The notes under the pieces were generated by a model. The model saw only the letters and a program-made list of their open reading frames with translations. It was not told the origin of the DNA and searched no databases. A stretch of DNA of 64,000 nt from an uncultured delta proteobacterium. GTDB taxonomy: Bacteria; Myxococcota_A; Polyangia; Polyangiales; Polyangiaceae. A program made the position numbers and the translations under genes. The stretch lies in the NCBI GenBank assembly GCA_963827955.1, contig CAWHDJ010000018.1:1181297-1245296 (forward strand), in the 5' to 3' direction. Every line of letters begins with the position of its first letter. Position 1 is the first letter of the stretch. This document shows positions 1,259-37,696 of the stretch, one piece after another.

Positions 1259-1363
1259 GAAGCGCCCGCGCTTCGGGCGCGGGGCGGATGAGGCGGCGGT
1301 GGCGATGGGACGCAGTATCGCAAGGACCTCACGGGAAGTCCTGCTCCGTTCACGCGCCGCCGG

Positions 1364-2215: not shown

Positions 2216-2310
2216 GTGCGTGAGCCTACGGGGCAGACGCCATGCGTCAACGGCTACCGTTTTCGCGGGAATCGGCCATCTGGTGGAAAAGTGCAGCAGC
2301 CGCGTCGAGG

Positions 2311-3307: not shown

Positions 3308-4035
3308 GGGCTCTTGTCTCCGTTAGCGTTGCGGAGCTCGGTCTCGAGGTCGGATAGTCCCTCGGGGGAGCCGATCTCGAAGAAGCGGCGGGTGGCCACG
3401 TGCGCGCGCAAACGGCCCCGGGCGGCGAGGTCGTGCTGCACGGCCGAGAGGTCGTGCGCCTCGCCGGGCGGGAGGGCGGCGACGACCTCGCGCCGGAGCG
3501 CGGTGGCGCCGTAGTCGATCGCGTCGAGCGACGGATCGGGCGGCGCGCCCTTCGGGCGCTTCTCGTAGCGGGCGACGAGCTCGCCCTCCACGCGGGTGTT
3601 GCTGCGATCGAAGCGATCGTCGTTCTTGAAGACCGCCATGGTGCCGAGCGCCTCCGGGTGCGCGCGGAGGTCGCGGAGCGGCGCCATGTAGTCGAAGGGC
3701 AGGTACGAGTCGCCGTACGTGACGAGGAACGTGGGCGCGAGGAGCGGCGAGGCCTTGCGAAGCGCGCCCGCGGTGCCGAGCAGGCGCTCGCCGTCCTCCA
3801 CGTAGGCGAGCGAGATCCCGAACGCGCTCCCGTCGCCGAGGCTCCGCCGCACCTCGTCGCCGAGGTGCCCGATGCAGAGCACGGCCTCCTCGAACCCCGC
3901 TGCGGCGAGCCGTTCGAGGAGCCACGCGGCGAAGGGGCGGCCGGCGACGGGCAGCAGGAGCTTGGGGATCCGCTCGGTGCGCGGGAGCATCCGCGTGCCG
4001 AGACCCCCTGCGAGGATGACGACTTGGTCAGCCAT
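3304..4035 (-). CDS. sugar-phosphate nucleotidyltransferase (HddC/mannose-1-P guanylyltransferase-like)
   Basis: It starts at the internal M (MADQVVILAGGLGTRMLP..) with the classic nucleotidyltransferase G-x-G-T-R motif, and LLGTAGAL, YGDS. ATGA overlaps the GHMP kinase start. Confidence 0.65.
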   Translation of the reverse strand: MADQVVILAGGLGTRMLPRTERIPKLLLPVAGRPFAAWLLERLAAAGFEEAVLCIGHLGDEVRRSLGDGSAFGISLAYVEDGERLLGTAGALRKASPLLAPTFLVTYGDSYLPFDYMAPLRDLRAHPEALGTMAVFKNDDRFDRSNTRVEGELVARYEKRPKGAPPDPSLDAIDYGATALRREVVAALPPGEAHDLSAVQHDLAARGRLRAHVATRRFFEIGSPEGLSDLETELRNANGDKSP

Positions 4036-4975
4036 TGGGCGGGAAGACTTCCGCCGCCAGCGCGGCCACCGCGCGCCCCACCGCCTCGTCGCTGGAGAAG
4101 CGGACGCGGAACCCGAGCGCCGCGAGCTTGGCCGGATCCATGCGCGAGCGCGGCACGTCGCCCGGCCATCCACGGTCGCCGCCGGTGTAGCGGATGACCG
4201 CGTCCTTGTACGGCGAATGCGCCACGCAGAGCTCGGCGATGCGCGCCACGCTGGTCGCGTCGAGGGGCGCGAGGTTGTGGATGTTGAGCCGCTCCTTCGC
4301 GTGGTCGAGGCCGAAGAGCATGCCCTGTACGCAGTCCGTGACGAAGAGGTAGGGCTTCGACTGCTTGCCGTCGCCGAGCACCTCGAGCTCCGTCTTCTTG
4401 TCGCGGAGCTTCCTGAGGAAATCGAGCGCCGCGCCGTGCGTGCCCCGCGGGCCGACGACGTTGCCGAAGCGGTAGATGTACGCCGTGAGGCCGAAGCACT
4501 CGACGAAGGCGGAGACCATCGCCTCGCCCGCGAACTTGCTCGCGCCGTAGAGCGAGATGGGGAGGCAGCCGAGGTCGCCCTCGGCGCACGTGGCCGGCGT
4601 CTCGCCGTACACCGTTCCCGACGACGAGAAGACGAGCTTCGGCACGCCGCCGAGGCGCATCGCCTCGAGCACGTTGTACGTCGCGATGGTGCCCTGCTCC
4701 AGGTCGAGCCGCGTACGCGCGAGGCCCCAGCGCGCCTCGGGGTTGGCGGCGAGGTGGAAGACGACGTCGTGCCCCGCCACGGCGGCGGTGAGGCGCTCGA
4801 GATCGAGCATGTCGGCCTCGATCAGCGTGGCGCGCCCGGACGCGAGGTGACCCTCGATCCACGCGCGCTTGCCGACCGAGAGGTTGTCGTAGACCGTGAC
4901 GGGCCCGCGCGGGGCGAGCGCGTCCACCATGTGGCTGCCGATGAAGCCGGCGCCCCCGACGACGAACGATTGCAT
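4028..4975 (-). CDS. NAD-dependent epimerase/dehydratase (extended SDR)
   Basis: It starts at the internal M (MQSFVVGGAGFIGSHMVDAL, Rossmann GxxGxxG) and has YGASK (the catalytic YxxxK). There is an 8-bp overlap with the downstream gene. Confidence 0.7.
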   Translation of the reverse strand: MQSFVVGGAGFIGSHMVDALAPRGPVTVYDNLSVGKRAWIEGHLASGRATLIEADMLDLERLTAAVAGHDVVFHLAANPEARWGLARTRLDLEQGTIATYNVLEAMRLGGVPKLVFSSSGTVYGETPATCAEGDLGCLPISLYGASKFAGEAMVSAFVECFGLTAYIYRFGNVVGPRGTHGAALDFLRKLRDKKTELEVLGDGKQSKPYLFVTDCVQGMLFGLDHAKERLNIHNLAPLDATSVARIAELCVAHSPYKDAVIRYTGGDRGWPGDVPRSRMDPAKLAALGFRVRFSSDEAVGRAVAALAAEVFPPNG

Positions 4976-4977
4976 GC

Positions 4978-5640
4978 TCAGGTTCTCCCGGGGAGGACGA
5001 CGCCGGGCTGGGCGCCGGCGAGGCGGTCCGCCCGCTCGATGCGGGCGGCGAACTGGACCTCGTCCCGCGTGATCCAGCGGAACGGGATGTCGTGGATCCG
5101 GAGCGGCCAGTCGAGGCCGGTGAAGCGGCCGCCCGCCGTCGAGACCAGCTCCGCCCACTCGCGCGCGTCGAAGTACGTCCCGCGCACGGCGACGCCGGGC
5201 CCTGCGTTGCCCACGACATCCATCGCCAGCAGGATCTTCTCGGACAGCCAGCCGAAGCGGAAGTGATCCTTGATGGCGACGACCTTGCTCGCGACGCGCA
5301 GCGCGTCGCGGAGCACGGCGCCCGGGTCCGTGCAGTGGTGGAGCACGTCCGAGATCACCACCGCCTCGAAGGCGTCGTCGGGGAAGGGGAGGTGCAGCCC
5401 GTCGTACGCCACGACCTCGACGGCGACCGAGGGGCGGACCTTGATGTCGACCCCGGCCACGCGATCGGCGCCGACGCGGGCGGCGATGGTCTTCGCCACG
5501 GTCCCGTCCCCGCAGCCGACGTCGAGCAGCGAGCGGGCACTGCCGATTTGCGCGGCGAGCGCCCGCGCCACGCGCTCGACGCGGGGGACGTGGACGCGGT
5601 GGTGGTGCGCCGAGAAGAAGGCGCGCTTGAAGAGGTCCAT
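4978..5640 (-). CDS. class I SAM-dependent methyltransferase
   Basis: It has LLDVGCGDGTVAK (SAM-binding motif I) and VVISDVLHH (motif II-like). It starts at the internal M (MDLFKRAFF..). Confidence 0.65.
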   Translation of the reverse strand: MDLFKRAFFSAHHHRVHVPRVERVARALAAQIGSARSLLDVGCGDGTVAKTIAARVGADRVAGVDIKVRPSVAVEVVAYDGLHLPFPDDAFEAVVISDVLHHCTDPGAVLRDALRVASKVVAIKDHFRFGWLSEKILLAMDVVGNAGPGVAVRGTYFDAREWAELVSTAGGRFTGLDWPLRIHDIPFRWITRDEVQFAARIERADRLAGAQPGVVLPGRT

Positions 5641-5715
5641 GGGCGCCCCCGTTCTAGTGCAGGGCACGCCGGATGCGAGCAACTTTCCGAGCCCGTTCCC
5701 GTTCCCGCTCCCGTT

Positions 5716-5742
5716 CCCGTTCCCGGACGAGTCGGGAACGGG
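5716..5742. repeat. hairpin (10-bp stem CCCGTTCCCG / CGGGAACGGG) embedded in a GTTCCC hexamer tandem repeat (5692-5726)
   Basis: This is a direct reading of the intergenic sequence between the patatin stop (5765) and the methyltransferase start (5640). There is no U-tract after the stem, so it is not a classical intrinsic terminator. Confidence 0.4.
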
Positions 5743-5764
5743 ATGGGGCTCGGGAAGAGAGGCC

Positions 5765-6673
5765 TCAGTTCAGGCTCACGTCCGTGCTCTGCGACCCCCC
5801 GAACACCCCTCGCTCCTTCGCCTGGGCCAGCACCCGGAGCGCCGTCCTGTACCCCCGCAACACCAGCGGGCGGGCGGCGAAGCGGTTCAGGTAGCCGTAG
5901 TGGCCGATGTCGGGGGCGATGTCGAGGAAGGTGACGTGGGGGTAGAGCTTGGAGAGCAGCTCGACGCCGCGCCGCTCCTTCTCGGTGAGCAGGATGTTGA
6001 GGGCCTGGCGCACCACGGCGTGGGCGCCGCGGCGGGCGATGTTGGAGTCGGTGGGGAGGACGCTCCTCCGGGCGGTAGATGTTCGAGATGATTACGACCG
6101 TGGCGCCCGCGGCGACGGCGATGTCGGCCGAGAGGGTGCGCGCGACCTCCCCGTCGAGGAAGTAGCGGCCGCCGATGCGGTACGGCCGGAAGAGGCCGGG
6201 CACGCAGCAGCTCGCCGCCACGGCCTGGCTGATGGGCACGCGCTCCTCGTACCCCGGGCCGAAGACGACGCGCTGGCCGTTGTCGACGTCGACGGCCGTC
6301 ACGAAGATCCGGTTCGGGAGCGCGCGGAAGTCGTTGATGGGCAGGTAGCCTGCGAGGTACCGCTCGAGCTTGTCGAGCGAGAACATGCCCGAGAGCACGT
6401 AGCCGGGGTCGAGCAGGTCGCGCAGGCGCGGCGCGCCCATGAACTTGTTGAGGTGCAGGCGCGGGCCCTGGTGGCGGCGCCGCCAGGGCAGCCGGTAGCC
6501 GTCGAGGAGCACGTCGAGCGGGATGTTCTGCCCGTAGGTGGCGCTCACGATGGCCCCGGCGCTCGCCCCGACGAAGACCTCCGGCTCGATGCCCAGCTCC
6601 TCGCAGGCCTTCAGCACGCCGAGGTGGGAGAGGCCGCGGGCGGCACCGCCGGATCCGATGAAGGCAATCTTGG
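5765..6673 (-). CDS. patatin-like phospholipase, frameshifted near 6050
   Basis: MPRTKIAFIGSGGAARGLSHLG (oxyanion GGxR), VGASAGA (GxSxG nucleophile) and FLDGEVA (catalytic DG[AG]). The C-terminal 83 aa are in another frame (ORF 5765..6016, MVRQALNILLTEKE..). Confidence 0.65.
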
Positions 6674-6752
6674 TTCGGGGCATGCAAACGTAGTTTCGCC
6701 GACCCGTCGAGGAGGGGCAAGAACGCGGCCATGCGTGTGCTACAGGTGAGCG

Positions 6753-7313
6753 GTGCCCCACCTCCTTCGCGTCGTGTTCCCCGCCCTGACCCTCTCGCTC
6801 GCGGCCCTCGGCTGCCAGGCCAACCCGCAGGAGGGCATGATCCGCCCCGAGGCCTCCGTTCACGCTCCGGCGGCCCCTCCGGCTCGCCCGGCCGGCGGCA
6901 CCCACCCCGGCGCCACGGGGGAGTCGTGGAACGCCCAGCAGATCGACTGGCAGGGGTACGAGGCGGGCCTGGCGAAGGCGAAGGCGGAGAAGAAGCCCGT
7001 CGTCCTGGTGTTCTACACGAACTGGTGCCCCCACTGCCGGAACTACAGCCACGTCTTCGACGACCCGACGGTGGTCGCGCAGAGCAAGAAGTTCGTGATG
7101 GTCCGCGCCAACGCCGACGAGGAGGCGGATCTCGCCAACCGATACAGGCAGGATGGCGGCTACGTGCCCCGCACCTTCTTCCTGAAGCCGGACGGCACCC
7201 TCGACCCCGACATCCACGTCCCCCGGCCCAAGTTCCTCTACTTCTTCGACGAGAAGGACCCGCGCTCGCTGCTCGGGGGGATGGACGAGGCGCTGCGCAA
7301 GCTCGCGGGGTGA
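6753..7313 (+). CDS. thioredoxin-fold lipoprotein (WCPHC active site)
   Basis: GTG start. The signal/lipobox is LSLAALGC. VLVFYTNWCPHCRNY has the CxxC motif. The gene is divergent from the patatin gene. Confidence 0.7.
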   Translation: MPHLLRVVFPALTLSLAALGCQANPQEGMIRPEASVHAPAAPPARPAGGTHPGATGESWNAQQIDWQGYEAGLAKAKAEKKPVVLVFYTNWCPHCRNYSHVFDDPTVVAQSKKFVMVRANADEEADLANRYRQDGGYVPRTFFLKPDGTLDPDIHVPRPKFLYFFDEKDPRSLLGGMDEALRKLAG

Positions 7314-7374
7314 GCGGCGCGCAATCCGCGTGCCAAGAGACTCGTCGTTCGGGTCGAGCCGCTCGTCGTTCGAG

Positions 7375-7935
7375 CCGAGCGGATGGGCAAGCGTGCCGCG
7401 CGGATGGGTGAGCGTGCCGCGCGGATGGGCAAGCGTGCCGCGCGGATGGGCAAGCGAGCCGCGCGGATGGGAAAGCGTGCCGCGCGGATGGGCAAGCGAG
7501 CCGCGCGGATGGGCAAGCGAGCCGCGCGGATGGGCAAGCATGCCGCGCGGATGGGTAAAGCGAGCCGCGCGGATGGGCAAGCGTGCCGCGCGGATGGGCA
7601 AGCGAGCCGCGCGGATGGGCAAGCGTGCCGCGCGGATGGGCGGGTCGAGCCGCGCGGATGGGCAAGCGTGCCGCGCGGATGGGCGGGTGAGCCGTGCGGA
7701 TGGGCAAGCGTGCCGCGCGGATGGGCAAGCGAGCCGCGCGGATGGGCGGGTGAGCCGCGCGGAGGGGCAAGCGAGCCGTGCGGATGGGCAAGCGAGCCGC
7801 GCGGATGGGCGGGTGAGCCGCGCGGATGGGCAAGCGAGCCGCGCGGATGGGCAAGCGTGCCGCGCGGATGGGTGAGCGAGCCGCGCGGATGGGCAAGCGA
7901 GCCGCGCGGATGGGCAAGCGAGCCGCGCGGATGCG
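7375..7935. repeat. 21-bp tandem repeat array, about 27 copies (unit GCGCGGATGGGCAAGCG[A/T]GCC), intergenic
   Basis: It is directly visible in the sequence. Units are 20-22 bp with variants (gggtgagcg, gggcgggtgagcc), so no frame is conserved throughout. It lies between the thioredoxin stop and the next + strand gene. Confidence 0.85.
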
Positions 7936-7970
7936 ACCTCGCAGTTGTGATACACGAAGGCGTGGCGGGC

Positions 7971-8756
7971 GTGGTTGAGGGTGCGAGCAGCAGGTGGCTC
8001 CTCCTGGTTCGACGCGTCGCCGCCAGCGCGCTCGCCGCGGCCGCGTTCACGCTCCCGTCGGCGCGCGCCGAGGCGTACCGCCCCTTCGACGGCACCGACG
8101 CGGACACGGCGGAGCCCAGAGAATTCGAGCTCGAGCTCGGCCCCGTCAACTACTACCGCCAGGGGGATCAGATCTTCCTCATCACGCCCGGCATGGTCCT
8201 GAACTACGGCCTCGGCGCGAGGACCGAGCTGGTCTTCGACGCGAGTGTGTACGTGGGGGTCCACAAGCCGACCCCCGGGGCGCCGCGCGTGGCCCTGCGT
8301 GGGGACGACCTGCTCTTGAAGCACGTGTTCCGCGAAGGGATCCTTCAAGGGAAGACGGGCGTCAGCATCGCGGCGGAGGGAGGCGTGCTCACCCCCGAGA
8401 GCAGCGGGGGAGTCGTCGGCCTCGGCGCGTCGCTCGATGTCATCCTCTCGTACCAGTGGTCGTGGGGCACCATCCACTGGAACGAGTGGTTCCAGTACAC
8501 GCGCGACCACCACGCGGACCTCTACACCGGAGCCATCCTCGAAGGGCCTCACGACTGGAAGGTGCGACCCGTCGCCGAGCTCTACTACGAGAAGGATTTC
8601 GCGGCCGACCGAACCGGGTCCGTCCTCGTCGGCGCGATCTGGACCGTCAGCGAGTCGATCGCGATCGACGCCGGCTTTCGCGGCGCGCGGTCGGGCTCGG
8701 CGTACGTCACCGAGGCGAGGCTCGGGCTCACGTGGTCCATCCCGACCGAGGGCTGA
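7971..8756 (+). CDS. secreted protein, putative outer-membrane beta-barrel (MetA-pathway/phenol-degradation-like family?)
   Basis: The signal peptide (VRRVAASALAAAAFTLPSARA|EA) follows an in-frame GTG after the repeat array. Alternating hydrophobic beta-strand patterning is seen (LGLTWSI, VLVGAIWTV). The start is uncertain: GTG 7947, 7962 or 7971. Confidence 0.45.
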   Translation: MVEGASSRWLLLVRRVAASALAAAAFTLPSARAEAYRPFDGTDADTAEPREFELELGPVNYYRQGDQIFLITPGMVLNYGLGARTELVFDASVYVGVHKPTPGAPRVALRGDDLLLKHVFREGILQGKTGVSIAAEGGVLTPESSGGVVGLGASLDVILSYQWSWGTIHWNEWFQYTRDHHADLYTGAILEGPHDWKVRPVAELYYEKDFAADRTGSVLVGAIWTVSESIAIDAGFRGARSGSAYVTEARLGLTWSIPTEG

Positions 8757-8817
8757 GTCGAGGCCGCGCCAACCCACTGGCCCCCGCGCCCGTCTTCCGG
8801 TACTCCCTGATCGCTCC

Positions 8818-10216
8818 ATGAGCGACCCCGACGCGCCCTTCCAGCGTGAAGAGTCCCTCGACAAGCCGGGCATCGTCGGCGCCCGCTGGTGGCAGCGCAG
8901 CCTGGAGGCGCCGCCGGACATGATGTCGCGCCGGCAGGCGGTGCAGGGCATGCTCGTCGCCGGCGGGGTCGTGGCGGGGCTCGGCGTGATGCTCGCCGTC
9001 GCGGGCGCGGCGTCGCACGCGTCGAGCGCTTCGAGCGCTTCGAGCGACTACCGGACGGAGACGCGCCCCTCGCTGGAGGCGCAGAAGAGCTTCGGGTGGA
9101 GCTTCGGCGCGCCCGGCGAGGCGCTGACCTTCGACGGCCGGTCGAAGCAGCCCTTCGACCGCGACGCCCTCGGGCGGATGGTGGACGACCTCCGCCCCGC
9201 GCGCCGCGAGCACGCGCCCTGGTACGTGCCCACGCTCTTCCAGGCCATCGGCGCCCAGCCGCGTGAGCGCGCGGTCGAGGAGACGACGCCCACGGTCCCG
9301 CTCGCGCAGGTCCTCCAGCCCATCTCCACGGCGGCGATGGACCTGGCCTATCGCCGCGGCAAGGCGCTCGCCTCGTTGTTCCAGGGCAAGGACGCGGCCG
9401 TCATGGTCGTCGTCGACCTGCCGGGGCCCGAGGCCGTCGCCTTCGCGGCCGGCGCCGCGGCCGTCTTCGATCCCGTCTTCGCCTTCGACAACTGGCCCCA
9501 CCCGCGCGGCGTCGTCCCTGCGCACCAGACCCTCGCCGCGGCGGCGTACTACCAGCCCCTCTTCGCCAAGCGTAGCGCCCCCGCCGGCGCGCCCGCGCTC
9601 GTCGCCCTCGATCGCCGGAGGCTCGCCTCCTATGCCGACGACGCGACGCAGTTCGACAACCGCCACGTCGCCCGCGTGCCCGGCGCCGCTGCGCTGAAAG
9701 CGCTCGGGATCAAGCGGGTGCTCTACGTCGCGCCGAGCGGGACGGACCGGGAGCTCGACGATCTCAACGACGATCCGGTCGCCTACATGCTGGCCGGGAT
9801 TGAGGTGCGGCTGGTCGGCGCGGACGCCTTCGGCCCCGAATCCGAGCGACGCGGGCAACACCGACGCGCCCTTCTACTACGGATCGAGCGCCCACACCCA
9901 CCTCGGGTTCTGGCTCGCCTACCGCTGGATCGAGCCCCCCCACTCCGCCCATCCGAGCGCGCCGGTCACGATGGGGGGAGACCCCCCATACCCCCCGGCC
10001 CAGCCGGTCCCACCCATGGCGGGCGCCGCATACGCCTTCGCGCCGCGCGCCTCGCCGTTCTCCAGCGGCTCCCTCACGGGATCGGCGGAGAGGCCGAGGC
10101 CGCCGGGCTTTGCCACCGTGCCGGTGATCGTCTCGGTCGCCACCGGCCTCGTCCTCGGCGCCAAGCTGTTCCGGAGCGGGTCGTGGAACCGCGCGTCGGG
10201 CTACTCCGGAGGGTAG
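8818..10216 (+). CDS. hypothetical protein with a Tat-like signal (SRRQAVQGMLVAGGVVAGLGV), frameshifted near 9838
   Basis: It starts at the internal M of ORF 8437..10434 (MSDPDAPFQ..). The real-looking C-terminus (NPSDAGNTDAPFYYGSSAHTHLGFWLAYRWIEPP...TVPVIVSVATGLVLGAKLF) lies in the frame of ORF 9800..10216. Confidence 0.4.
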
Positions 10217-10222
10217 GGGAGC

Positions 10223-10840
10223 GTGGAGCACTCGATCTTCGCCCTCGAGGTCTGCGCCAAGCTCGTGCCGGAGAGCCCGCTCCGCGCCGGCCTGTGCGAG
10301 CTGATCACGATGGGGGCTGCGCCCCCAAACCCCCGCTCAGGGCTGGTCCGCGACGCCACCGCCGGGATGAGCCTGCACGCGAAGTGGTCGCAGTACCAGC
10401 GGGCCGCGCTGCTCGTCATCGAGCACCTCGGTGACGTCGAGCGCGGGTGCTGGGACTACTTCGACGACGAGGCGCGGGCGCGGCGCGACTACGACATGTG
10501 GACGAACGGGATGCTGACCGAGGAGGGCGTGCGCGCCGAGCCCTCCGGCCTCGCCGACCCCTACCGCGGCGAGCCCCGCTACCTGACGTTCACGATGGCG
10601 ATGCTCATCGCGCAGGGGTCGCCCGCCGATCGCATGATGCGGGGCGTGTGCGACATCCCCGAGGCGCAGCTCTGGCAGCGGGAGACGTTCGCCCGCATCC
10701 TGCGCGGCGTGTGCCAGATCAGCTTCGCGAGCGTGAAGAGCGACGTGCTCTACCTGATCCCGCGCGACGACGCGTGGGCCCTCACGGCGCAGGACCTATC
10801 GCAGAGCAAGTTCGAGTACCTGCGGATGCTCGAGGGGTAG
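10223..10840 (+). CDS. hypothetical protein
   Basis: A 205-aa ORF of non-biased composition with a GTG start 6 bp after the upstream stop. No recognisable domain. Confidence 0.4.
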   Translation: MEHSIFALEVCAKLVPESPLRAGLCELITMGAAPPNPRSGLVRDATAGMSLHAKWSQYQRAALLVIEHLGDVERGCWDYFDDEARARRDYDMWTNGMLTEEGVRAEPSGLADPYRGEPRYLTFTMAMLIAQGSPADRMMRGVCDIPEAQLWQRETFARILRGVCQISFASVKSDVLYLIPRDDAWALTAQDLSQSKFEYLRMLEG

Positions 10841-11224
10841 GTCGCGCGCCGGCGTAGGCGCATTCGCGACATGTAGGAGAAGAGGCGCGCCCGCGGCATC
10901 GGCTGCTACCGATACTTCTTGCGAGGTCCCGGACCTCGTTGCGAGGGTCGGCGTGCGGGTGCCCGATCCGCCGCCCTCGTTTCACCTTCGACGCCGAGAT
11001 TCGAGGCCATTTTGCAGCGCATCGAGCGCGGCGGCGCTCGTATGGTGCGGACCCCTCGCGCTTGGAACGGGACGTGCATGGCGGCCCCCCGCCGGGGTGT
11101 CTCGGCCTTCGGGCAAACGAAGGGCATCCCAGAAGAGCATGCTTCGAATGAAATCGGCTCACGTTTGTGGTGCCATGGACCGATGGGATTCTCGTCCCCT
11201 CCGGCGAGGCGTGGGAGGCGTGCC

Positions 11225-14200
11225 ATGAGCCACGGTTCAGGAGCGAAGCATTCTGCCCCGCCGAGGGCCCGCTGGCTCCCTTCATTCGTCGCGCTGCTCG
11301 TGGCGGCCCTCGGGATTGTGGTCGGCTCCTCGTCCTGCTCGAACCTGGACCAGTTCAAGCCCGGGGGCACCGGCCCGGTCAACTCGACCGGCAGCGGCGG
11401 CTGCACCGGCCCGGAGTGCGCCGCGCTGTGCGACGAGCACCCGCAGCCGGGCTGCAAGTGCGACGTCGAGGGCCAGCACCTGCTCTGCAGCAAGGCCGAG
11501 GCGAGCTTCCCGACCGAGGGCACCAGCGATGGCGCCACCGTCTGCGGGACGGGCTTCTCCGTGTGCACCAAAGGGGTCTGGGGAGAGTGCCAATCGACGG
11601 CGCGGTCACCATCGTGCCCAACGCGCCCCCCGGGTTCTACGCCGAGAACCTCGGCACCGGGACGAACTGCGCGAAGAACCCGTGCGACCCGGCCTGCAAG
11701 GACTTCGTCGACACGCCGACCGGCGTCACGGGCACCGGCATCGCGTCAGCGACTCGGGCGTGACCATCGCCGGGACGGAGCACGTCTGCGTGCCGAAGAG
11801 CTGCGCGGCCTCGGCATCAACTGCGGGATGCAGAGCGACAGCTGCGGCGGCGTCATCGACTGCGGCACCTGCGCGTTCCCGCAGGTCTGCGGCGGCGGCG
11901 GCCCCAGTCAGTGCGGCGTCGGGGTCAGTTGCACCAACCTCTGCCCTACCAGAAGCAGTGCTCGGCCGGCGTCACGACGAGCATCAGCGGCACCGTCTAC
12001 ATGCCGAACGGCACGACCCGCTGCCGAACGTCCTCGTCTACGTGCCCAACGCGCCCCTCTCCGCCTTCACCAGCAGACGGCGTGCGTGACCGGCGGCAAC
12101 TGCCGGCCGAGGTCTCCGGCTCCCCGCTCGTGGCGACGACGAGCGCCATCGACGGCACGTTCCTGCTGACCAACATGCCGGCGGGCATCAGTTTCCCGGT
12201 CGTCCTCCAGCTCGGCCGCTTCCGGCGCGTGTTCACGATGCCGGCGGTCACGCAGTGCACGAACGCAACCGTGTCCTGCTCGACCCCGCAGAGCTGCCTC
12301 TCCCGCTTCCCGCAGTACGAGAACGAACGTCGTCCTACGACAACATCCCGAAGATGGCCTTCATCACGGGCTGCGTCGACGCGCTCGAGTGCGTCTGGCG
12401 GAAGGTCGGCATCGGCAGCACCGGGGCCCCGGGCCTCGGCGGCACCAGCTACGGCACGGGCGAGTTCACGCCCGGGCTCACGAACGGGCGCATCAACTTC
12501 TACGCCGGGAGCGGCTGCCCCGGGACGTACGTCACCGACATCGGCACCACCACGCCGTGGGATTCGACGCTGCTCGGCGACTCGACGATGCTCGCCAACT
12601 ACGACATGGTGCTCTTCCCCTGCCAGGGCAAGGAGTACTACTACGGGACGAACCGAATCCCGTACGAGTCGAACGTCACGACCTTCGTGAACGCGGGCGG
12701 GCGCGTCTTCTCGACCCACTACAGCTACACCTGGATCTTCTCGGACACGAACGGCTACTACAACTCCGCCCTCAACCCGGCGATCAACTGGCACGTCAAC
12801 CAGAGCTACGGCGGCTCCGATCCGACCACGGGTTACATCAACACCACCTTCCCCGGGGGCCAGACCCTGGCTTCGTGGCTCATGGTCCCTGCCGTCGGCG
12901 CGTCGACGACGTACGGCCAGATGCAGATCAACACGATCCGGCACGACTTCGACAGCGTGAACCCGCCGAGCCAGCTCTACGTGAGCCTCGGCACGCTGTC
13001 CTGCGCCAGCACCGGCTCGGACCCGAAGAACTGCGGTGGCTGCGGGAAGACCTGCGGCTTCGGGAAGGTCTGCTCGAACGGCGCTTGCGCGAGCTCGTGC
13101 GCGTCGGGCCTCAAGAGCTGCTCCAGCGCGTGCACGAACGTCAACACCGACCTGAACAACTGCGGGTCCTGCGGCAACGTGTGCGACCCCGGCCAGGTCT
13201 GCACCTCCGGCGTCTGCAAGTGCCCGTCGGGGAGCACCGACTGCAACGGGAGCTGCGTCGTCACCAACAGCGATCCGACCAACTGCGGCTCCTGTGGGAA
13301 TGCGTGCGGCGTCGGCCAGACGTGCAGCAGCGGGACGTGCACGTGCGTCCCCGGGCTGACGAAGTGCAACGGCGCCTGCGTGCTCACGTCCACCGATCCG
13401 AGCAACTGCGGCGGGTGCGGCACCACCTGCTCCTCGGGCAAGAAGTACTGCCGCGGCGGGACGTGCAGCTCGTCGACGTGCACCGCCGGCGGGTACCCCA
13501 ACACCTGCACCGTCGGGAACCGGTTCGCGTGCGACACCGCGACCAACCTCCTGTCGGATCCCAAGAACTGCGGGATGTGTGGCAACGCGTGCGCCGCGGG
13601 CCAGGTTTGCAGCAACGGCACCTGCACGAGCGGGGTCACCGTGTGCGGGTCCGGGCTCACGATCTGCAGCGGCTCCTGCACGCTCCTGTCCAACGATCCG
13701 AGCAACTGCGGGGCGTGCGGCACCGTGTGCCCCGACGGGGACGCCTGCGTGAACGGCGCGTGCACCTGCTCCTCCGGCGTCACGTGCCAGAACGGCATCC
13801 CCCAGCAGGCGAGCTTCAACACGCCGCTCGGGATCGCCGCGAACAACCAGTGCGGCCGCGTCGTGTTCAGCGACTTCCACGTCGAGTCCAGCAACGACTC
13901 GCAGTACGCGTTCCCGAGCGAGTGCGGCGGCGGCGGCCTCAGCCCGCAGGAGTTCATGCTGGCGCAGGCGCTCTTCGATCTCGCCGGGTGCGTCAACATC
14001 AGCCCGCCGCCGACCTGCACCCCCGTCACGTGTGGCTACCTCGGCCTCAACTGCGGGACGGCGGGCGACGGCTGCGGCAACACCATCAACTGCGGGACCT
14101 GCCCATCGGGCCAGAGCTGTGGCGGCGGCGGCTTCCCCGGTGTCTGCGGCGTCCCGCAGACCTTCTCCTCGGCGAGCTTCGTGCGCGACTACGACGCTTC

Positions 14201-14612
14201 CACCGTCTGCAACATGGCCGCGGGGGAGCACCCCATCTGGCGCCTGTACTCGTGGAGCGCGCTCACGCCGAAGGACTCGCACATCGACTTCAACATCGCG
14301 ACGGCGACATCGCTCGCCGGGCTCGCCACCGCGACGCCCTACCCGCTCCGCTGGTCCAACCCGCCGGGCATCCCGGCGACGTACACGTCCGCCCAGCAGG
14401 CGTCGGCCCACGCCGTGAACGAGCCCACGTCCGGCAAGCCCGACACGGAGCTCGGCGGCGCCTCGCCCGACGCGACGCTGCTCGCCAACGTGCTGCCGCA
14501 GAACAACTACTACGTCCGCGTGATCGCGACCCTTCAGCCCTCGAGCGACCTGCTGAGCGCGCCGGTCCTGTCCTCCTGGGACATGCAGATCGACTGCACC
14601 ACCATGGAGTGA
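11225..14612 (+). CDS. large secreted cysteine-rich repeat protein (at least 12 CxxCGxxC modules); the N-terminal 1.1 kb is broken by about 8 frameshifts
   Basis: The signal/lipobox is MSHGSGAKHSAPPRARWLPSFVALLVAALGIVVGSSSC. Protein-like segments alternate between the three + frames from 11225 to about 12320 (ORFs 10919, 11167, 11316, 11911, 12255). From 12320 to 14612 there is a single intact frame containing NCGGCGKTCGFGKVCSNGAC-type repeats and PTCTPVTCGYLGLNCGTAGDGCGN motifs. Confidence 0.55.
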
Positions 14613-14639
14613 TCCGGCGCCGCTCGATCGCAGACGCTC

Positions 14640-15524
14640 ATGATCGAAAGGCCCATGCCCACGCGCAAGCCCGTCAGGCAGCAACTCTTCGTGCTCGTGC
14701 CCGCGGTCGCGGGGATCGCCCTCTCCCTCGGGAGCGGCTGCGGCGGCGGCAGCCCGTCGTACCCGCTCTCGGATGGAGGGCTCGGGGCCTCGAGCACGTC
14801 GAGCTCCTCGCACGCCACGTCGAGCTTTTCCGGCGCCGGCGGCACCAGCTCGTCCAGCACGAGCGCATCGAGCACGAGCGCGTCGAGCACGAGCACGTCG
14901 AGCACGAGCGCATCGAGCACGAGCACGTCGAGCACGAGCACGAGTAACACGAGCGCGAGCACGAGCGCGAGCACGAGCACGAGCACGAGCACGTCGAGCG
15001 CGAGCAGCAGCGGGGAGGCGTGCACCGCCAACGGAGAGGCCTGCGTCGTGTTCTCCGACTGCTGCTCCCAGCAGTGCAACGCCGGCTTCTGCGGGCCGAT
15101 CGGCTGTTTCGCGAACGGTCAGGCCTGCTCCAGCGACAACGAGTGCTGCTCCATCAACTGCACCGACGGCATGTGCGCGAAGGGAGCGAGCTGCCTCGCG
15201 AACGGCTTCTCGTGCACGCTGGCGTCCGAGTGCTGCTCGACCGAGTGCAACGGCGGCAAGTGCGGTCCGGCGGGGTCGTGCAACGGCAACGGGATGGCGT
15301 GCTCGGACGACAGCCAGTGCTGCTCGAGCACGTGCGCCGGCGGCCAGTGCGCTCCGCAATCCTGCGCGCCGCCCGGGGGGAGCTGCAAGTCGGCGAGCGA
15401 TTGCTGCGGTGGTCTCAGCCAGTGCACCAAGGGCACGTGCACGAGCTGCAAGACGCTCGGGCAGCCATGCGCCGGGGCCGCGGACTGCTGCTCGGGTACG
15501 TGCAGCGGCGGGACCTGCGAGTGA
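14640..15524 (+). CDS. lipoprotein with S/T-rich linker and six cysteine-rich (C-x4-5-C-x4-DCCS-x2-C-x3-4-C) knottin-like repeats
   Basis: The signal is VLVPAVAGIALSLGSGC. The (STS)n linker is followed by CTANGEACVVFSDCCSQQCNAGFCG repeated 6 times. Confidence 0.6.
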   Translation: MIERPMPTRKPVRQQLFVLVPAVAGIALSLGSGCGGGSPSYPLSDGGLGASSTSSSSHATSSFSGAGGTSSSSTSASSTSASSTSTSSTSASSTSTSSTSTSNTSASTSASTSTSTSTSSASSSGEACTANGEACVVFSDCCSQQCNAGFCGPIGCFANGQACSSDNECCSINCTDGMCAKGASCLANGFSCTLASECCSTECNGGKCGPAGSCNGNGMACSDDSQCCSSTCAGGQCAPQSCAPPGGSCKSASDCCGGLSQCTKGTCTSCKTLGQPCAGAADCCSGTCSGGTCE

Positions 15525-20963: not shown

Positions 20964-21335
20964 CTACGCGGCGGACTTCGGGCGCTCGAAGCGCTGCGCG
21001 CGAGCGAGGCTCCAGCCTTTCGGGAGCGCCTCCGGTCGGCAGCGGAGCGCTTCGAGCTCGTCCGGCGTGATGTGGTCGGCGAGATCGGCCACCACGCTGG
21101 CGAGCAAGTGCGGCGCCGGCGGGGTACCGGGACGGCTGCGCCGGACGACCACGACGTCGATGCGCAGAGGTTCGCGGGAGAGCTGGAACTCCGAGATGCA
21201 CTGGTAGAAGCCGCCCGGGAGCACGTGCTCCAGCAACACGACGAGCACCGGATGCCACGCGGTGTAGACCCGGGTGAGCTTGTGCCGCTGAGCGGGCTCC
21301 GCCTTCTTCGTCGCCTTGCGCGCGACCTTCGCCAT
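20964..21335 (-). CDS. hypothetical protein
   Basis: The ORF is 129 aa (or 123 from MAKVARKATKK). It has a Lys-rich N-terminus and non-biased composition. No recognisable domain. Confidence 0.3.
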   Translation of the reverse strand: MAKVARKATKKAEPAQRHKLTRVYTAWHPVLVVLLEHVLPGGFYQCISEFQLSREPLRIDVVVVRRSRPGTPPAPHLLASVVADLADHITPDELEALRCRPEALPKGWSLARAQRFERPKSAA

Positions 21336-21514
21336 CGGCGGCAGCCCTACCACGGTCGCTGCCGGGTCGCGATCCCCATCGCGGCGCCGCCATCACGCGT
21401 GGGCAAGTGCGCTTCCGCGTAGGCGAGCGCTGCGCTGTGGCTCCGCACGAGCGTCATCGTGGACCGGATTTCAACGCAGAGACGCAGGGACGCAAAAAGG
21501 CAAGAAGAGCAAGC

Positions 21515-22003
21515 TCATGGCTTGGGCCATTCGACGTTCCAGAGGTCGAGGGCTCCGGCGAACGTTCGGAAGTCTTCGGCCATGGTCACCCAGCGATTCT
21601 GCTGCCGCGTCGCGCCCCAAAGCAGCCGGACAATGCGCGGGGGCGTGCATCGGTAGTCGAGCAAGATGGGGGCATCGGAGCCGAGGCCAAAGTCTCCGAT
21701 GAGCAGGGAGAGGTTGATGTCGATGCCCGATGGGCTCATGAACGGCTCGTTCCAGAATTCGCGCTCGGTGCCCGTTGCCCTCTCAGCAACCAGACGCGGA
21801 GGATGACAGAAGAGGTAGATGCGTGATTCCTCGGGCGCGAGGAGCTGGACGCGCGCGGCAGATATCAGCGGCGGCTCTCCGTTCTGCGCCAGCTCCTGCT
21901 GGTTGGTCCTTGGCCATCGCCCCGCGACGACGAGCGCCATGTACTCTTGCGGAAGCGGTAATCCTGCAATCAGCATCCGTCCCTCGTCTGCCCAACGTAC
22001 CAT
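21515..22003 (-). CDS. SUKH-1 (SMI1/KNR4) family immunity-like protein
   Basis: Starting at the internal M (MVRWADEGRMLIAGLPLPQEYMALVVAGRWP), it matches the SMI1/KNR4 LP..Y..FL motif. C-terminal LIGDFGLGSDAPILLDYR...VTMAEDFRTFAGAL matches the family's conserved C-terminal block. Codon usage is atypical (GTA, GCA, GGA, TTA, ATT) and local GC is about 60%. The ORF stays open upstream through the 21-bp repeat to M at 22288. Confidence 0.5.
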   Translation of the reverse strand: MVRWADEGRMLIAGLPLPQEYMALVVAGRWPRTNQQELAQNGEPPLISAARVQLLAPEESRIYLFCHPPRLVAERATGTEREFWNEPFMSPSGIDINLSLLIGDFGLGSDAPILLDYRCTPPRIVRLLWGATRQQNRWVTMAEDFRTFAGALDLWNVEWPKP

Positions 22004-22320
22004 TCCGATCCCCACACACGCCTCGGCGATCCCCGCGTACGCCTCGGCGAACCCCACGTACGCCTCGGCGATCCACGCATACGCCTCGGCGATCCACGCA
22101 TACGCCTCGGCGATCCCCACATACGCTTCGGCGATCCCCACGTACGCCTTGGCGATCCACGCGTACGCCTCGGCGATCCCCACATACGCCTCGTCGATCC
22201 CCACGTACGCCTCGGCGAACCACGCGTACGCCTCGTCGATCCACACGTACGCCTCGTCGATCCCCACGTACGCCTCGGCGATCCACACGTACGCCTCGGC
22301 GATCCACGCCCGAGCTTGCG
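22003..22320. repeat. 21-bp tandem repeat array, about 15 copies (unit CGCCTCGGCGATCC[C/A]CRCGTA), in frame with the SUKH gene and encoding (EAYVGIA)n heptads on the - strand
   Basis: Direct reading. It is a different unit from the 7375-7935 array but the same 21-bp period. Confidence 0.85.
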
Positions 22321-22373
22321 CGCACGACGCCGCCTCCGGTCGCCTCCGAACCTACATCGGCCCCTGCCGTCTT

Positions 22374-22436
22374 GCCCTGTCTCCGTTTGGGCCATGCCTG
22401 TCTCCGTTTGGGCCCTGCCTGTCTCCGTTTGGGCCC
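22374..22436. repeat. 3 x 21-bp tandem repeat (CTGTCTCCGTTTGGGCCMTGC)
   Basis: Direct reading. It lies 200-260 bp upstream of the 22634 gene. Confidence 0.8.
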
Positions 22437-22633
22437 TGCGACCCCTGGGCTGCGCCTCGACCAGGCGCTCGGGCCCCCTCAGGATCCTTCCCAACCTTGC
22501 GAAACCACGATTTATTTTGGACCCACAGGCCACGGCGCGTCCGGCTCGCGGCGGGCAGGCACGGCGCTTGCGATGAGGGCTCGTCGACGCGGCAATCGGG
22601 CCGCGGATCACCCATCACAGAAAGGAGGGCCCC

Positions 22634-23281
22634 ATGGCTACCGTGAATCGGACCCGGGCCATTTTGAAGATCGACAGACGCAGCACCCCCAGCGTGACGG
22701 GGAGGGCGAAGGCCGCGCGCGACGGGCTCGCGAGCGACACGACGAAGTTCGGCGCGTCCAACCCGAGCTCCGCCGCCATCGACGCCCAGATCACCGTCGT
22801 CGACAAGGCCGAGGACCAGGCGCGCAAGAGGGTCCCTGGCGCCGCTGCGGCGCGCAACGTCCAGCGATCGCTCCTCGTGGGCATGCTGGAGAAGGTGCTC
22901 ACGTTCGTGCAGGGGATCGCCGACACGAGCGCGACGCGCGAGGACGCCGTGGCCACGATCCTGGCGGCAGGATTGCTGGTCGCGACGCCCCCGCAGGCGC
23001 GGAAGCAGATCCTCGCGGCCAAGCAGGGTCCGCAGTCGGGCTGCGTGCTGCTGGCCGCCTTCGCGAAGCTGCTCGGCGCCGCGGGGAGCGCGAAGAGCTG
23101 CTTCAACTGGCAGCAAACCAGTGACGGCAAGACCTTCGTCAACCAGCCGTCGACGCCGAAGGCGAAGACCATGGTCACCGGCCTCACGCCGGGCCAGAGC
23201 TACGGCTTCCGCGTGAGCGTCACCCGCTCGGACGGCACCACCGGCGAGTGGACGCAGGTCGTCACCATCATCGCTCACTGA
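22634..23281 (+). CDS. hypothetical protein with C-terminal fibronectin type III-like domain
   Basis: A strong RBS (AAAGGAGG) sits 6 bp before the ATG. The C-terminus KTMVTGLTPGQSYGFRVSVTRSDGTTGEW fits the FN3 consensus (LxPxTxYxFRV). Confidence 0.5.
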   Translation: MATVNRTRAILKIDRRSTPSVTGRAKAARDGLASDTTKFGASNPSSAAIDAQITVVDKAEDQARKRVPGAAAARNVQRSLLVGMLEKVLTFVQGIADTSATREDAVATILAAGLLVATPPQARKQILAAKQGPQSGCVLLAAFAKLLGAAGSAKSCFNWQQTSDGKTFVNQPSTPKAKTMVTGLTPGQSYGFRVSVTRSDGTTGEWTQVVTIIAH

Positions 23282-30397: not shown

Positions 30398-30460
30398 GGC
30401 GTCTCTCGCGATGGCGCGAGCGCCTCTCGCGATGACGCGAGCACCTCCCGCGATGGCGCG
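30398..30460. promoter_or_regulatory. 3 x 21-bp tandem palindromic repeats (CTCTCGCGATGGCGCGAGCGC; core TCGCG-N4-CGCGA) in the divergent ATPase/MVP intergenic region
   Basis: Direct reading. Each unit contains a perfect 5-4-5 inverted repeat, which is operator-like. It sits 120-180 bp upstream of the ATPase start and about 110 bp upstream of the MVP start. Confidence 0.45.
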
Positions 30461-30566
30461 AGCGCTTCTCGGGTAACGCGCTCGCGCTGACGCGTTGCGT
30501 TGCCAGGCCCATCCGACGAGCACGCGCGTCCCGCTCCTGGTGCCCATTCCGGTGTAGCCTTCCCCC

Positions 30567-33434
30567 GTGACAGAGCGCACGAGCCGCAAGATCCCCGTCA
30601 CCGAACGCCAGTTCCTCTGGGTCCAGGACGACGACAAGGGCGAGGTCACCCTCCACGTCGGCCCCACGATGGTCTCGCCCACCGCGGCGGACCGCGTTGT
30701 CGTCGACGACGGTGAGGGCGGGTTCCGGGAGGACCTCTCGGGCCGGCCCCAGCAGATGGTGGAGCTCAGCGACAGCCAGTACGCGGTGCTCTTCAACCCG
30801 CTGGGGGAGAACGACGGGGGCCCGAACGGGAAGTTCCGCGCCGGCCGCAACGAGTCGCGCCCGGTGCGCAACGGCACGCGGGCGATGATCCCCGGCCCGT
30901 GCAGCTTCTACCTGCGCCCCGGGCAGCGGATCGACGTGCGCGACGCGCACGAGCTGGCGTCGAACCAGTACCTCGTCGTCAAGGTGTACGGCGAGGTCGA
31001 CACCACCGCGCCCTTCTTCCAGGTCACGGCGCGATCCGCCACCATCACCCGCGCCACGGCCGAGAGCCCCATCGCCCCCGGCAGCACCTCGCCCGACGGC
31101 GACGCGCGCGACGTCGTGCTCAAGCGCGGCCAGCTCATCGTCATCCGCGGCCTCGACACCCAGTTCTACATCCCGCCGACCGGCGTCGACATCGTGCCCG
31201 ACACCTCCGTCGACGACTCCGGCGCGGGCCTCAACGCCGCCGCCGCCCAGCGCCTCCTCGCCGCCCTCGCGCCCCCGCCTCCGCCTCCGCAGGCCGATCC
31301 GGCGGCCGTGGGCGGCGCCTTCGGCGCGCCCGCGATGAAGGCCGAGGCCGCCTACGACGAAGAGCGCGCCGAGGAGCCCGAGCAGCAGCAGACCCGCGCC
31401 CCGCGCCGCGCCGCCCCCGTCGTCGACCAGACCGCGCGCTCCCGCCAGCGCGTCATGCCTGCCGCCGCCGCAGCGCCCCCCGGCTTCGGTCCTCCTTCAC
31501 CTCCGCCGGCGCCGGCGCCCCAGCCGTTCCCGCCCCCGCAGACGCTCTCCGAGCTGGGATTGCTCGCCGCCGTGCGCCGCGCCCTGGAGCGCGAGGCCCG
31601 CCAGGCCCGCCTCGTGCGCCAGGCCGTCGTGCTCGGCGAGAAGGAGTACTGCGTCATCGTCGACGCCGACGGCAAGCGCGAGATCAAGGTCGGCCCGGCC
31701 CGCGTCTTCCCCGGCCCCTACGACGTCTTCATGGTCGAGGGCTCGAAGAACCGCGTCTACGACGCGTACGAGCTGCTCCCCCAGCGCGCCCTCTGGCTCC
31801 GCGTCATCGCCCCCATCTCGCGCGACGACCTCGCCGCCCGCCTCCCGCGCGGCTTCGCCCTCGACAAGGACCAGTACTACCCCGGCGACGAGCTGCTCCT
31901 CACGGGCGTCTCCACCTTCTTCGTCCCGTTCAACGAGATCGAGGTCCTCTCCCCGCAGACGGGCGAGGCCGTCGTCGGCAACGATCACCGCACCGTCTTC
32001 ATCGAGGCCATCGGCATCGACCAGAAGAGCGGCATCTACGTCCGCGATCTGGCCACCGGGGAGGTGCGGCTCGTCCGCGGCAAGCAGAGCTACCTCGTCG
32101 ATCCGCGCAAGGAGGTGCAGATCACCCGCACCGTCTCCGCGACGGACTGGAACCTGTGGATTGCCGGCAACGAGCCGCACAAGCGCACGGGCGCGCCCAT
32201 CACGACGCCGTGGGCCCTCTCCATCGTCGTGCCCCACAACATGGCCGCCCTCGCGACGTCGGCCGACGGCCAGCGCGTCATCCTCGGCCCGTGCGTGACC
32301 TTGCTCGGGTACGAGGAGACGCTGACCTCCATCCTGCTCTCGACGGGCACCCCCAAGTCGGATCAGGACCCGCTCCGCACCTCTTTCCTCCGCGTCGGCG
32401 GCAACCGGATCAGCGACGCGATCACCGTCGAGACGCTCGACTTCGTCGCCATCAGCGCCAAGGTCTCGCTCTCCGTCACCTTCCTCCAGGAGCAGAAGGA
32501 TCGCTGGTTTTACCACGAGAACTACGTGCAGGTCCTCGTCGACCACCTCCGGTCCATCGTCCGGAGCCGCTGCCGGACGCTGCCGCTGTCCACGCTCTGG
32601 CCGCAGATCCCCGCCGTCGTGCGCGACACGATCCTCGGCGAGAAGAGCGCGGCCGGCGGGCGCCCGGGGCGCGCGTTCCCGGAGAACGGGATGGTCGTGA
32701 CGGAGGTGGAGGTGCTCTCCGCCAACATCGTTGACAAGTCGATCGCCGCGCAGATGCAGCGGGTGCAGTCGGAGTTCGTGACGCTCCAGATCGGAGACCG
32801 CCAGGCGCAGGAGGCCCTCGCCTCCGCGCGCCTCCGCGCCGACATCAAGCGCCAGCACCAGGAGCTGGAGCAGGAGGCGCGGGAGCGGGAGGCGAGGCTC
32901 GAGGAGCAAGCGCGGCGGACGGCGCACGAGGTGAGCGTGGCGCGGGTGAAGGACGAGGAGTCGCTGCGGCGCGAGCAGCAGGCGCTCGGCGACGCGCGCG
33001 AGGCGGCGGCGCTCGCGGCGCGGCTCGGGCGGCAGGCGGACGAGCGCGACGCCGAGCGGGCCAACCTGGAGAAGTCGGCGGCCGCGCAGGCGGCGGCGAG
33101 GCGCGTGGTGGACGCGGCCGACGTGGAGAACCGGCGGGCGCTGCGCGATCTGGAGGTGCTGCTGATCCAGGCAGAGAGCGCGGCGACGGTGGCCGAGCGG
33201 CAGGCCGTGCAGGCGGGGCTCGTCGAGGCGCTCACGGCGCTCGGCGACAAGGCGCTGCTCGGCGAGGTCGCGCAGAACATGAACCTCGTCACCCTCTTCA
33301 AGGGCAAGGACGTGGGCACCATCCTCGCCGAGGTGCTCGGCGGCACGCCGGCGATGCCCGCCGTGCAGGCCCTGCGCGCGAAGTTCGCCTCGGCGCTCAC
33401 GACCGGCAGCACCCAGCCCGACGACGCCGGCTGA
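30567..33434 (+). CDS. major vault protein (MVP) homologue
   Basis: The 955-aa ORF is intact. From my recollection of the human MVP sequence, it shares blocks in the N-terminal repeats, the shoulder region and a coiled-coil cap-helix region at the C-terminus, for example: HVGPTMV / [31 protein letters not shown] / [46 protein letters not shown] / [30 protein letters not shown]...[27 protein letters not shown] / RVPHNAAV...[41 protein letters not shown] / VFPQNGLVVSSVDV. GC and codon usage look native. Confidence 0.8.
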   Translation: [955 protein letters not shown]

Positions 33435-37576: not shown

Positions 37577-37657
37577 CGCGGCTGAGCTCAACCGGAATTG
37601 AACCGCCAAGACGCCAAGGCGCCAAGACGCAAAAAGGAAATCATCTTTTTGGCGTCT
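37577..37657. terminator. long (about 35-bp arm) AT-containing palindrome/hairpin between sppA and the SDR gene
   Basis: TTGAACCGCCAAGACGCCAAG(GCGCCAAGACGC)AAAAAG-gaaatcat-CTTTTTGGCGTCTTGGCGTCTTGGCGGTTCAA; near-perfect inverted repeat with A/T runs flanking the loop, conspicuous in 72% GC DNA. Could act as a bidirectional terminator. Confidence 0.4.
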
Positions 37658-37696
37658 TGGCGTCTTGGCGGTTCAATCTCTTTCTCGAACAGGTCT

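Follow-up and report, generated by a model that had tools for sequence, protein, structure and literature searches.

A 21-bp tandem array that stays in frame with the gene beside it raises the question of whether the repeats are part of the encoded protein or of the intergenic DNA. This question is posed by a 64-kb window, that is, the whole analyzed stretch of 64,000 nucleotides (nt) from contig CAWHDJ010000018.1 of an uncultured delta proteobacterium of the Polyangiaceae, in which a low-GC gene on the minus strand, closed by a stop codon at 21515–21517, is adjoined at its 5′ side by such an array (22006–22305). A preliminary description, made from the sequence alone, had viewed the locus as an orphan SUKH (SMI1/KNR4) immunity-like gene, and proposed either an unprecedented repetitive N-terminal extension of the protein, or the replacement of an upstream toxin gene by a repeat expansion. 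The analysis reported here favors another answer, which we consider fairly probable as a whole: the gene derives from an integron cassette, encodes an orphan SUKH-fold immunity-like protein that starts at 21976, and stands beside a non-coding minisatellite that arose in situ.

The minus-strand frame of the gene is stop-free from 22351 to 21518. As the preliminary description stated, it remains open for another 95 codons through the array, from ATG 22003 to GTG 22288, and TRF, pattern counting, and translation all verified the 21-bp array, whose units read as heptads in this frame. The end that it assigned to the feature, 22436, had to be given up, as this position is outside the open frame and falls in a separate array (22376–22439). 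In the public annotation (P0001 in NCBI/ENA), the gene occupies 21515–22288 on the minus strand, starts with GTG 22288, and encodes a 257-amino acid (aa) protein with 13 repeat units included, while the protein starting from ATG 22003 would have 162 aa, and not the 163 aa given previously for the core.

Alignment of the family showed that the N-termini of the relatives coincide with Met 21976 (MLIAGLPLP...), which is the second Met of the previously described core. A GAGGGA Shine–Dalgarno sequence lies 3 nt 5′ of ATG 21976, and both elements are common to the window and locus L043, which carries the closest relative (P0002, with 84% aa identity to the window protein). The 90% nt-identical stretch that the two loci share takes in GAGGGA and ATG 21976 and excludes ATG 22003, and the L043 position matching ATG 22003 is within an attC site. 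Because the N-termini of the relatives, the Shine–Dalgarno sequence, and the homology to L043 all point to ATG 21976, the coding sequence as read from the DNA is most likely 21976–21515 on the minus strand, encoding 153 aa. The start of P0001 is probably mis-called by 104 codons, and the public 257-aa record is probably wrong. Thus, by comparative evidence, the start does lie downstream of the repeat, though 27 nt downstream of ATG 22003, the codon at which the preliminary description would have placed such a start.

Genes fusing SUKH domains to repeats, which had been suggested as something to look for in related genomes, were found in none of the 279 family proteins other than P0001; among all 280 proteins, the period-7 self-identity was 0.82 in P0001 and at most 0.36 in the others. 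With relatives starting at 21976, no repeats in their proteins, an array without coding constraint, and the array lying outside the cassette boundary, where the homology of the 90%-identical relative stops, the repetitive N-terminal extension was not upheld. The claim of an immunity protein with a repeat extension reduces to a mis-annotated start codon, which is a caution for high-GC genomes.

The array itself was then evaluated for coding signals. TRF reported 14.3 copies with 88% matches, no indels, and a score of 432, and the consensus unit matched 13 times at ≤3 mismatches, compared with 0.02 matches expected in shuffled sequences. Read in the frame of the gene, the units would encode (V/A)(G/W)(I/F)(A/D)(E/K)AY. 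However, six of six frames are stop-free through the array, so that the openness of this one is uninformative; in a genome with 71% GC, repetition of a 21-mer without stops keeps every frame open, and this accounts for both the open frame and the 257-aa annotation. The eight variable sites of the unit are split 3/3/2 over codon positions 1/2/3, and the differences from the consensus comprise 20 nonsynonymous and six synonymous ones, approximately as expected of unconstrained DNA. Nor does the array resemble a heptad-repeat domain, as the homologues have no repeats, the variation is mainly nonsynonymous, and each heptad contains a Gly or Trp. Its units do stand head to tail, as in a minisatellite, in the DNA that separates the conserved start 21976 from the divergent gene at 22634; the array starts at a distance of 9 bp from the cassette boundary, on its upstream side, and stops 330 bp short of that gene.

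Another array of the window, at 7371–7933, served as an internal control for an artefactual extension of open reading frames (ORFs). The ORF 7383–8756 runs open through it, with a signal-peptide-like N-terminus that sits only after the array, even though indels shift the frame twice within the array (MGKRAAR... to SRADGQA... to EPRGWAS...). Given the absence of a coding signal, the start of the relatives at 21976, and the equal artefact at the control array, array 22006–22305 is a locus-specific non-coding minisatellite. Neither this array nor any tandem repeat was found upstream of the relatives in the loci examined, and no counterpart array was present in the JGI metagenome contigs, where the search pattern covered 1.5 units in degenerate form. 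The sole metagenome match to this pattern was single-copy coding sequence (EIAEAYAGFD, in an ORF judged glycosyltransferase-like), and hence was rejected as an array. The minisatellite would have arisen in situ in the intergenic DNA, via slippage or unequal recombination.

The origin of the gene was traced through its relatives. The closest ones (84%, 54%, and 46% aa identity), and the members in Ideonella and in two metagenome-assembled genomes (MAGs), are integron gene cassettes. An attC site carries the R″ (RYYYAAC) and R′ (GTTRRRY) cores, an internal loop, and extrahelical bases. At L043, an 87-nt element that runs from GCC(G/C)AAC to GTTGGGC and forms a long imperfect hairpin stands on each side of the gene, and its two copies differ by compensatory changes. 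Similar to this layout, L049 (P0005) and L050 (P0017) possess attC-like hairpins with the cores GCCCAAC (R″) and GTTGGGC (R′), and three attC sites of this group gave folding z-scores of −4.6 to −5.5 as bottom-strand single-stranded DNA. These flanking elements are attC sites.

Sites were scanned by regular expression plus folding, and the integrase was searched by tblastn using an IntI1 probe, with L013 and L030 as positive controls. In the isolate Ideonella lacteola DXS29W (L023, NZ_JBBUTG010000041.1), the gene of the family forms a cassette by itself within a large chromosomal integron array, which contains at least 22 attC sites of ~60 nt at ~500-bp spacing and spans the whole 12.4 kb of the locus (1–12429). 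An Abditibacteriaceae MAG (L013) contains a complete integron, in which the family member is located in attC-flanked cassettes (5840–6560), and an IntI homologue (2293–3228, minus strand; 52% identity to the IntI1 probe, E 1e-94) is encoded 2.8 kb upstream of it. At L030, an attC site ends 15 nt before the ATG of the family member, and an IntI fragment is near. Altogether attC sites accompany the relatives at L043, L049, L050, L023, L013, and L030; other family members stand singly among unrelated genes. The single-gene cassettes most closely related to the window gene contain no toxin, and no evidence was obtained for a toxin having been replaced by the repeat expansion.

The window copy retains one end of such a cassette. 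On the minus strand, the junction reads ...GGTAC, then GTTGGGCAGACGAGGGACGG, then ATG. The sequence GTTGGGCAGAC at 21996–21986 is identical to those at L043 and L049, and the homology begins exactly there. Since GTTGGGC(A/T)GAC is invariant among the window, L043, L049, and L050 and the sequences upstream of it are unrelated, the 5′ boundary of the cassette is preserved at 21990–21996, and each of the four sequences has its start codon after the R′ core. BLAST gave 90% nt identity between the window and L043 at 21997–21514 and nowhere else, so that the homology ceases 1 nt past the window stop codon. The composition supports a foreign origin as well, in agreement with the preliminary description: the GC content of the gene is 0.634–0.636 and that at third codon positions (GC3) is 0.77–0.78, against a window GC content of 0.713 and a GC3 of 0.85–0.98 in ORFs with coding-type composition. 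The GC3 of 0.77 resembles that of L043 (0.75) and is unlike the host. The ratio of nonsynonymous to synonymous substitution rates (dN/dS) between the window copy and L043 was 0.41, which indicates a constrained but fast-evolving protein. At the nearest Polyangia loci, found via the AurF-like neighbor (72–75% aa identity), synteny is lost.

An integron within the window was ruled out, as attC hits were at noise level (three, against two to six in shuffled sequences, and none near the SUKH-fold gene), BLAST of the L043 attC gave no match in the window, and no IntI was detected in the 64 kb (tblastn best E 3.4). Compared with integron gene cassettes, the window copy has in common the TTGGGC 5′ boundary, the 13–30-nt leader, the one small ORF, and the 90% nt identity to a bona fide cassette, while it differs in having no downstream attC, no integrase in 64 kb, and a minisatellite upstream of the gene in place of attI or attC. 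The best reading is that of a cassette escaped from the integron pool into a Polyangia chromosome. The copy would have come horizontally from the cassette pool, and would keep the 5′ boundary (G|TTGGGC), the leader, the Shine–Dalgarno sequence, and the start codon, while it would have lost its attC and, with no integrase nearby, become a stranded orphan cassette gene. The retained boundary lets a cassette gene be recognized outside integrons, and the locus is a small case of escape into ordinary chromosomes.

The protein belongs to a large family. A single-sequence search gave 55 relatives and a profile search 705 (clusters at 90% identity), while an exhaustive profile search gave 879 clusters at 50% identity. 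Members are ~140–150 aa long (median about 150), and the alignment shows the conserved motifs GRWP, APEE, PPFxTV, IGDFGLGSDAPILLDYR, and PRVIRLxW. Sequence searches of PDB with the single sequence and the profile gave no relevant match for the window protein, and an alignment-based AlphaFold (AF2) model reached a pLDDT of 94 and a pTM of 0.89. PF09346 (SMI1_KNR4) was the only recurrent Pfam match among the relatives, always below threshold, being found in 22 of 45 relatives (best E 0.0012) and in 19 of 55 more divergent members (best E 3.1e-5), and UniRef names a Nannocystis member an SMI1/KNR4 family protein. The protein is most likely a remote member of the SUKH superfamily, distantly related to SMI1/KNR4 (SUKH-1), in a family of its own for which Pfam has no model. 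The SUKH-1 signature that had been described in the core reaches no hidden Markov model (HMM) threshold in this protein. In contrast to the SUKH-1 (PF09346) immunity proteins of polymorphic-toxin systems, such as YobK and RhsPI, the window family falls below every curated HMM threshold, forms its own 879 clusters without Pfam coverage, and consists mostly of solitary members that are not linked to toxins. That such a family recurs as integron-cassette cargo in at least four phyla links the environmental cassette pool with immunity to interbacterial toxins.

The role in immunity was assessed from the neighbors of the gene and of its relatives. In the window, the gene is an orphan, as described previously: the upstream gene is divergent, and no toxin domain was detected by Pfam in the scanned neighbors. 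A toxin linkage was found at the Lysobacterales locus L033, where an Rhs-repeat protein (4–2226) is followed after 9 nt by the family member (2235–2663). The Rhs protein has a core end of ...DPVNGIDPSGY and a variable C-terminal domain of ~260 aa with a Gly-zipper-like segment, so judging from the sequence the two would form a classical toxin–immunity arrangement and a candidate cognate pair. In Bacteroidales, orphan immunity genes of the SUKH type that lie in recombinase-associated arrays gave protection in experiments (PMC12247911). In these rAID systems, short co-oriented orphan SUKH genes are carried by an array that depends on a tyrosine recombinase and has conserved motifs between its genes, and they spread horizontally (PMC12247911). 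The relatives found here are likewise within arrays, namely integrons, but these are classical ones using IntI and attC, and the copy in the window stands apart from any array and has neither a recombinase nor recombination sites. By this analogy, by that with the SUKH immunity proteins, and with the Rhs-linked member at L033, an orphan immunity function is most likely. The gene product would be a 153-aa cytoplasmic SUKH-fold protein that binds and neutralizes an incoming polymorphic toxin domain. The gene is thus an ordinary orphan immunity-like gene of the SUKH type, of cassette origin and with a mis-annotated start.

Several observations weigh against this combined reading of origin, fold, function, and array. 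The window protein itself, scanned as the core and as the full ORF, had no Pfam or NCBIfam match at E ≤ 1, so that the HMM search by which the preliminary description wished to confirm the SUKH assignment failed to do so, and Foldseek against PDB returned nothing significant (best 2icg at E 1.6). Only one of ~25 loci of relatives (L033) places the family member behind a polymorphic toxin, and as ~19 of 20 scanned upstream neighbors are unrelated housekeeping genes, the toxin linkage rests on one locus. At the 3′ end of the window gene no attC was found (flank fold z 0.09, unrelated to the L043 attC), and the homology also breaks off 1 nt behind the stop codon, which leaves an incomplete cassette. 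The array has a host-like GC3 of 0.94 in the frame of the gene, and every GTG-type unit has GAGG-N5-GTG in that frame, which is probably the reason why the gene caller picked GTG 22288; on this sequence pattern, which is weak evidence given a single effective 21-mer, translation may start inside the array. Finally, no promoter-like sites were found in 21300–22700 by a scan of the sigma-70-type consensus only, and the gene may therefore be silent. The features discussed are listed in Table 1.

Table 1. Positions of the SUKH-fold gene, its 5′ elements, and the period-21 arrays in the 64-kb window.
Feature	Position	Strand	Basis or remark
Most likely true coding sequence, 153-aa SUKH-fold protein (MLIAGLPLPQEY...WPKP), with stop 21515–21517	21515–21976	−	
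Cassette-type 5′ leader: R′ core GTTGGGC (21996–21990), AGAC, Shine–Dalgarno GAGGGA (21985–21980), CGG	21977–21996	−	
In-frame ATG taken as the core start by the preliminary description	22001–22003	−	No counterpart in relatives; upstream of the cassette boundary
Non-coding minisatellite, 21 bp × 14.3, minus-strand unit G(T/C)G(G/T)GGATCGCCGAGGCGTAC	22006–22305	.	TRF and pattern count
Stop closing the frame upstream of the array	22352–22354	−	
Weak terminator-like hairpin with T-rich tail, overlapping the stop codon	21510–21524	−	One site against 0.5 expected in shuffled sequences; weak
Array, 21 bp × 3 (CCTGTCTCCGTTTGGGCCCTG), in the same divergent intergenic region, outside the open frame	22376–22439	.	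TRF; unit unrelated to the 22006 unit
Array, 21 bp × 26.7 (CGAGCCGCGCGGATGGGCAAG), with adjoining 1.9-copy array	7341–7933 (main part 7371–7933)		
Array, 21 bp × 3.5 (GCGCCTCTCGCGATGGCGCGA), ~100 nt ahead of the GTG with which gene 30567 begins	30399–30471		

The gene could alternatively be dead cargo, a stranded and promoterless cassette remnant that is unexpressed, decaying, and without function in its host. The lack of a promoter-like site would suit this, as would a window without attC or IntI and a composition not ameliorated toward that of the host; cassettes are also normally promoterless (PMC1382264, PMC4670013). However, the ORF is intact at full length, its dN/dS was determined against the cassette copy as 0.41, the Shine–Dalgarno sequence and start codon are intact, and the promoter scan was limited to the sigma-70-type consensus. 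We regard this alternative as unlikely, and prefer a constrained orphan immunity-like gene.

A second alternative concerns the array, which might be a functional cis-element, made of phased protein-binding sites or acting as a spacer of variable copy number, that tunes or silences the acquired gene or the gene at 22634. The window holds five period-21 arrays (starting at 7341, 7371, 22006, 22376, and 30399) in three intergenic regions, and all of them are intergenic and near gene starts, at 30–100 nt from the start codons; those at 7341–7933 take up all of the intergenic DNA that separates the next gene from the one ending at 7313. Only two period-21 arrays, both short, were found in 457 kb of other loci. 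Literature searches returned no description of intergenic 21-bp arrays from myxobacteria. The five units are unrelated to one another: that they are rotations or complements of a common unit was ruled out, as the best matches (9–13 of 21) were at the level of shuffled units. The notion that array 22006 or array 22376 (unit with GGCCCAAAC) is a split or expanded attC was also rejected, as no L-box complement is present beside the R′ core and the fold does not exceed that of shuffled sequences.

The recurrence of the arrays at 5′ intergenic positions and their scarcity elsewhere would favor the cis-element, but the units share no motif, no promoter-like sites were found in the scanned region and no Rfam families in the window, and the intergenic arrays of another Polyangia locus have other periods (17 and 18 bp), so that a period of 21 bp is not the rule. 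We therefore hold a regulatory role of the array to be quite improbable. The wider proposal, that period-locked 21-bp arrays with locus-specific units (7341–7933, 22006–22305, 22376–22439, and 30399–30471) tune or insulate the adjacent genes as copy-number-variable elements that preserve helical phase, 21 bp being two helical turns, appears slightly less probable still; if true, they would serve, at this locus, a cassette gene of recent acquisition that came with no promoter of its own. Mycobacterial MIRU-VNTR loci are similar in having head-to-tail units of tens of bp located in intergenic DNA beside gene starts, with a unit length divisible by 3 and flanking genes into which the frames run open. 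They differ in that the window units are locus-unique, with no dispersed family, and are exactly 21 bp at five arrays.

A third alternative denies the SUKH assignment and takes the protein as an unrelated small alpha/beta domain, for example with a regulatory or chaperone-like role as for Syd or Knr4. It would be consistent with the missing direct HMM match, with the Foldseek result, with the housekeeping genes that make up most genomic contexts, and with the absence of a PADLOC match for the gene. The recurrent PF09346 matches among the relatives point to the remote SUKH relationship, and we consider an unrelated domain very doubtful.

The weakest alternative, in which the array is translated from GTG 22288 or any GTG-type unit into a SUKH domain with a de novo heptad-repeat N-terminal extension, draws on the open frame, the unit GC3 of 0.94 with a GC1>GC2<GC3 pattern, the GAGG 5 nt before each GTG-type unit, the lack of indels, and the 257-aa annotation of P0001, but is highly improbable given that six open frames make openness uninformative, that for one effective 21-mer a 7/7 GC at one phase arises by chance at an estimated ~1/6, that unit variation is mostly nonsynonymous without third-position bias, that 0 of 279 other family proteins have repeats, that the start and Shine–Dalgarno sequence at 21976 are conserved, that the array is outside the cassette boundary, and that array 7371–7933 extends an ORF likewise although frameshifted.

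The divergent gene next upstream (22634–23281, plus strand) has a weak Fn3-like match, and the scanned neighbors are ordinary chromosomal genes, encoding a PQQ propeller, an AurF-like protein, an LPG-synthase transmembrane protein, and an SDR. The named best matches of the AurF-like protein are from Kofleriaceae, Sorangiineae, and Polyangia, and by these the host would be a myxobacterium of the class Polyangia. Directly downstream of the SUKH-fold gene, a 129-aa ORF (20964–21353, minus strand) with a host-like GC3 of 0.91 had no Pfam, NCBIfam, or PADLOC match, and its exact sequence was absent from the protein collection searched. The product of the gene preceded by array 30399–30471 (30567–33434, plus strand) is a bacterial MVP-like protein of 955 aa, in which the shoulder and repeat domains of Major Vault Protein were recognized (PF11978 at E 1.4e-16, with weaker matches to Vault_3 and Vault_4).

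Other tandem arrays were observed as well. In the window, an array of 18 bp × 5.6 lies at 1861–1975, and one of 15 bp × 11.6 at 14842–15006, where it overlaps an ORF of coding-type composition (14534–15118, minus strand). Related Limnoglobus MAG loci carry a 21-bp array of three to four copies, TGTCGC..TCGGTCGATTTT. (L002, 2633–2715; L005, 3504–3571), upstream of a Ser/Thr kinase gene, behind which the family member is located. In another Polyangia MAG (L052, 6886–7220), intergenic arrays of 17 bp × 8.1 and 18 bp × 5.4 (100% identity) are found just upstream of a Y1_Tnp gene (weak Pfam match). Further, an 81-nt perfect palindrome of 8-mer repeats (GCCAAGAC/GCCAAGGC ... GACGCAAAAAGG) is located at 37597–37677. 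At 21470–21500, just 3′ of the SUKH-fold gene, the 12-mer GACGCAAAAAGG follows 8-bp repeats (ACGCAGAG × 2.6); this 12-mer has two matches in the window, compared with 0.1 expected.

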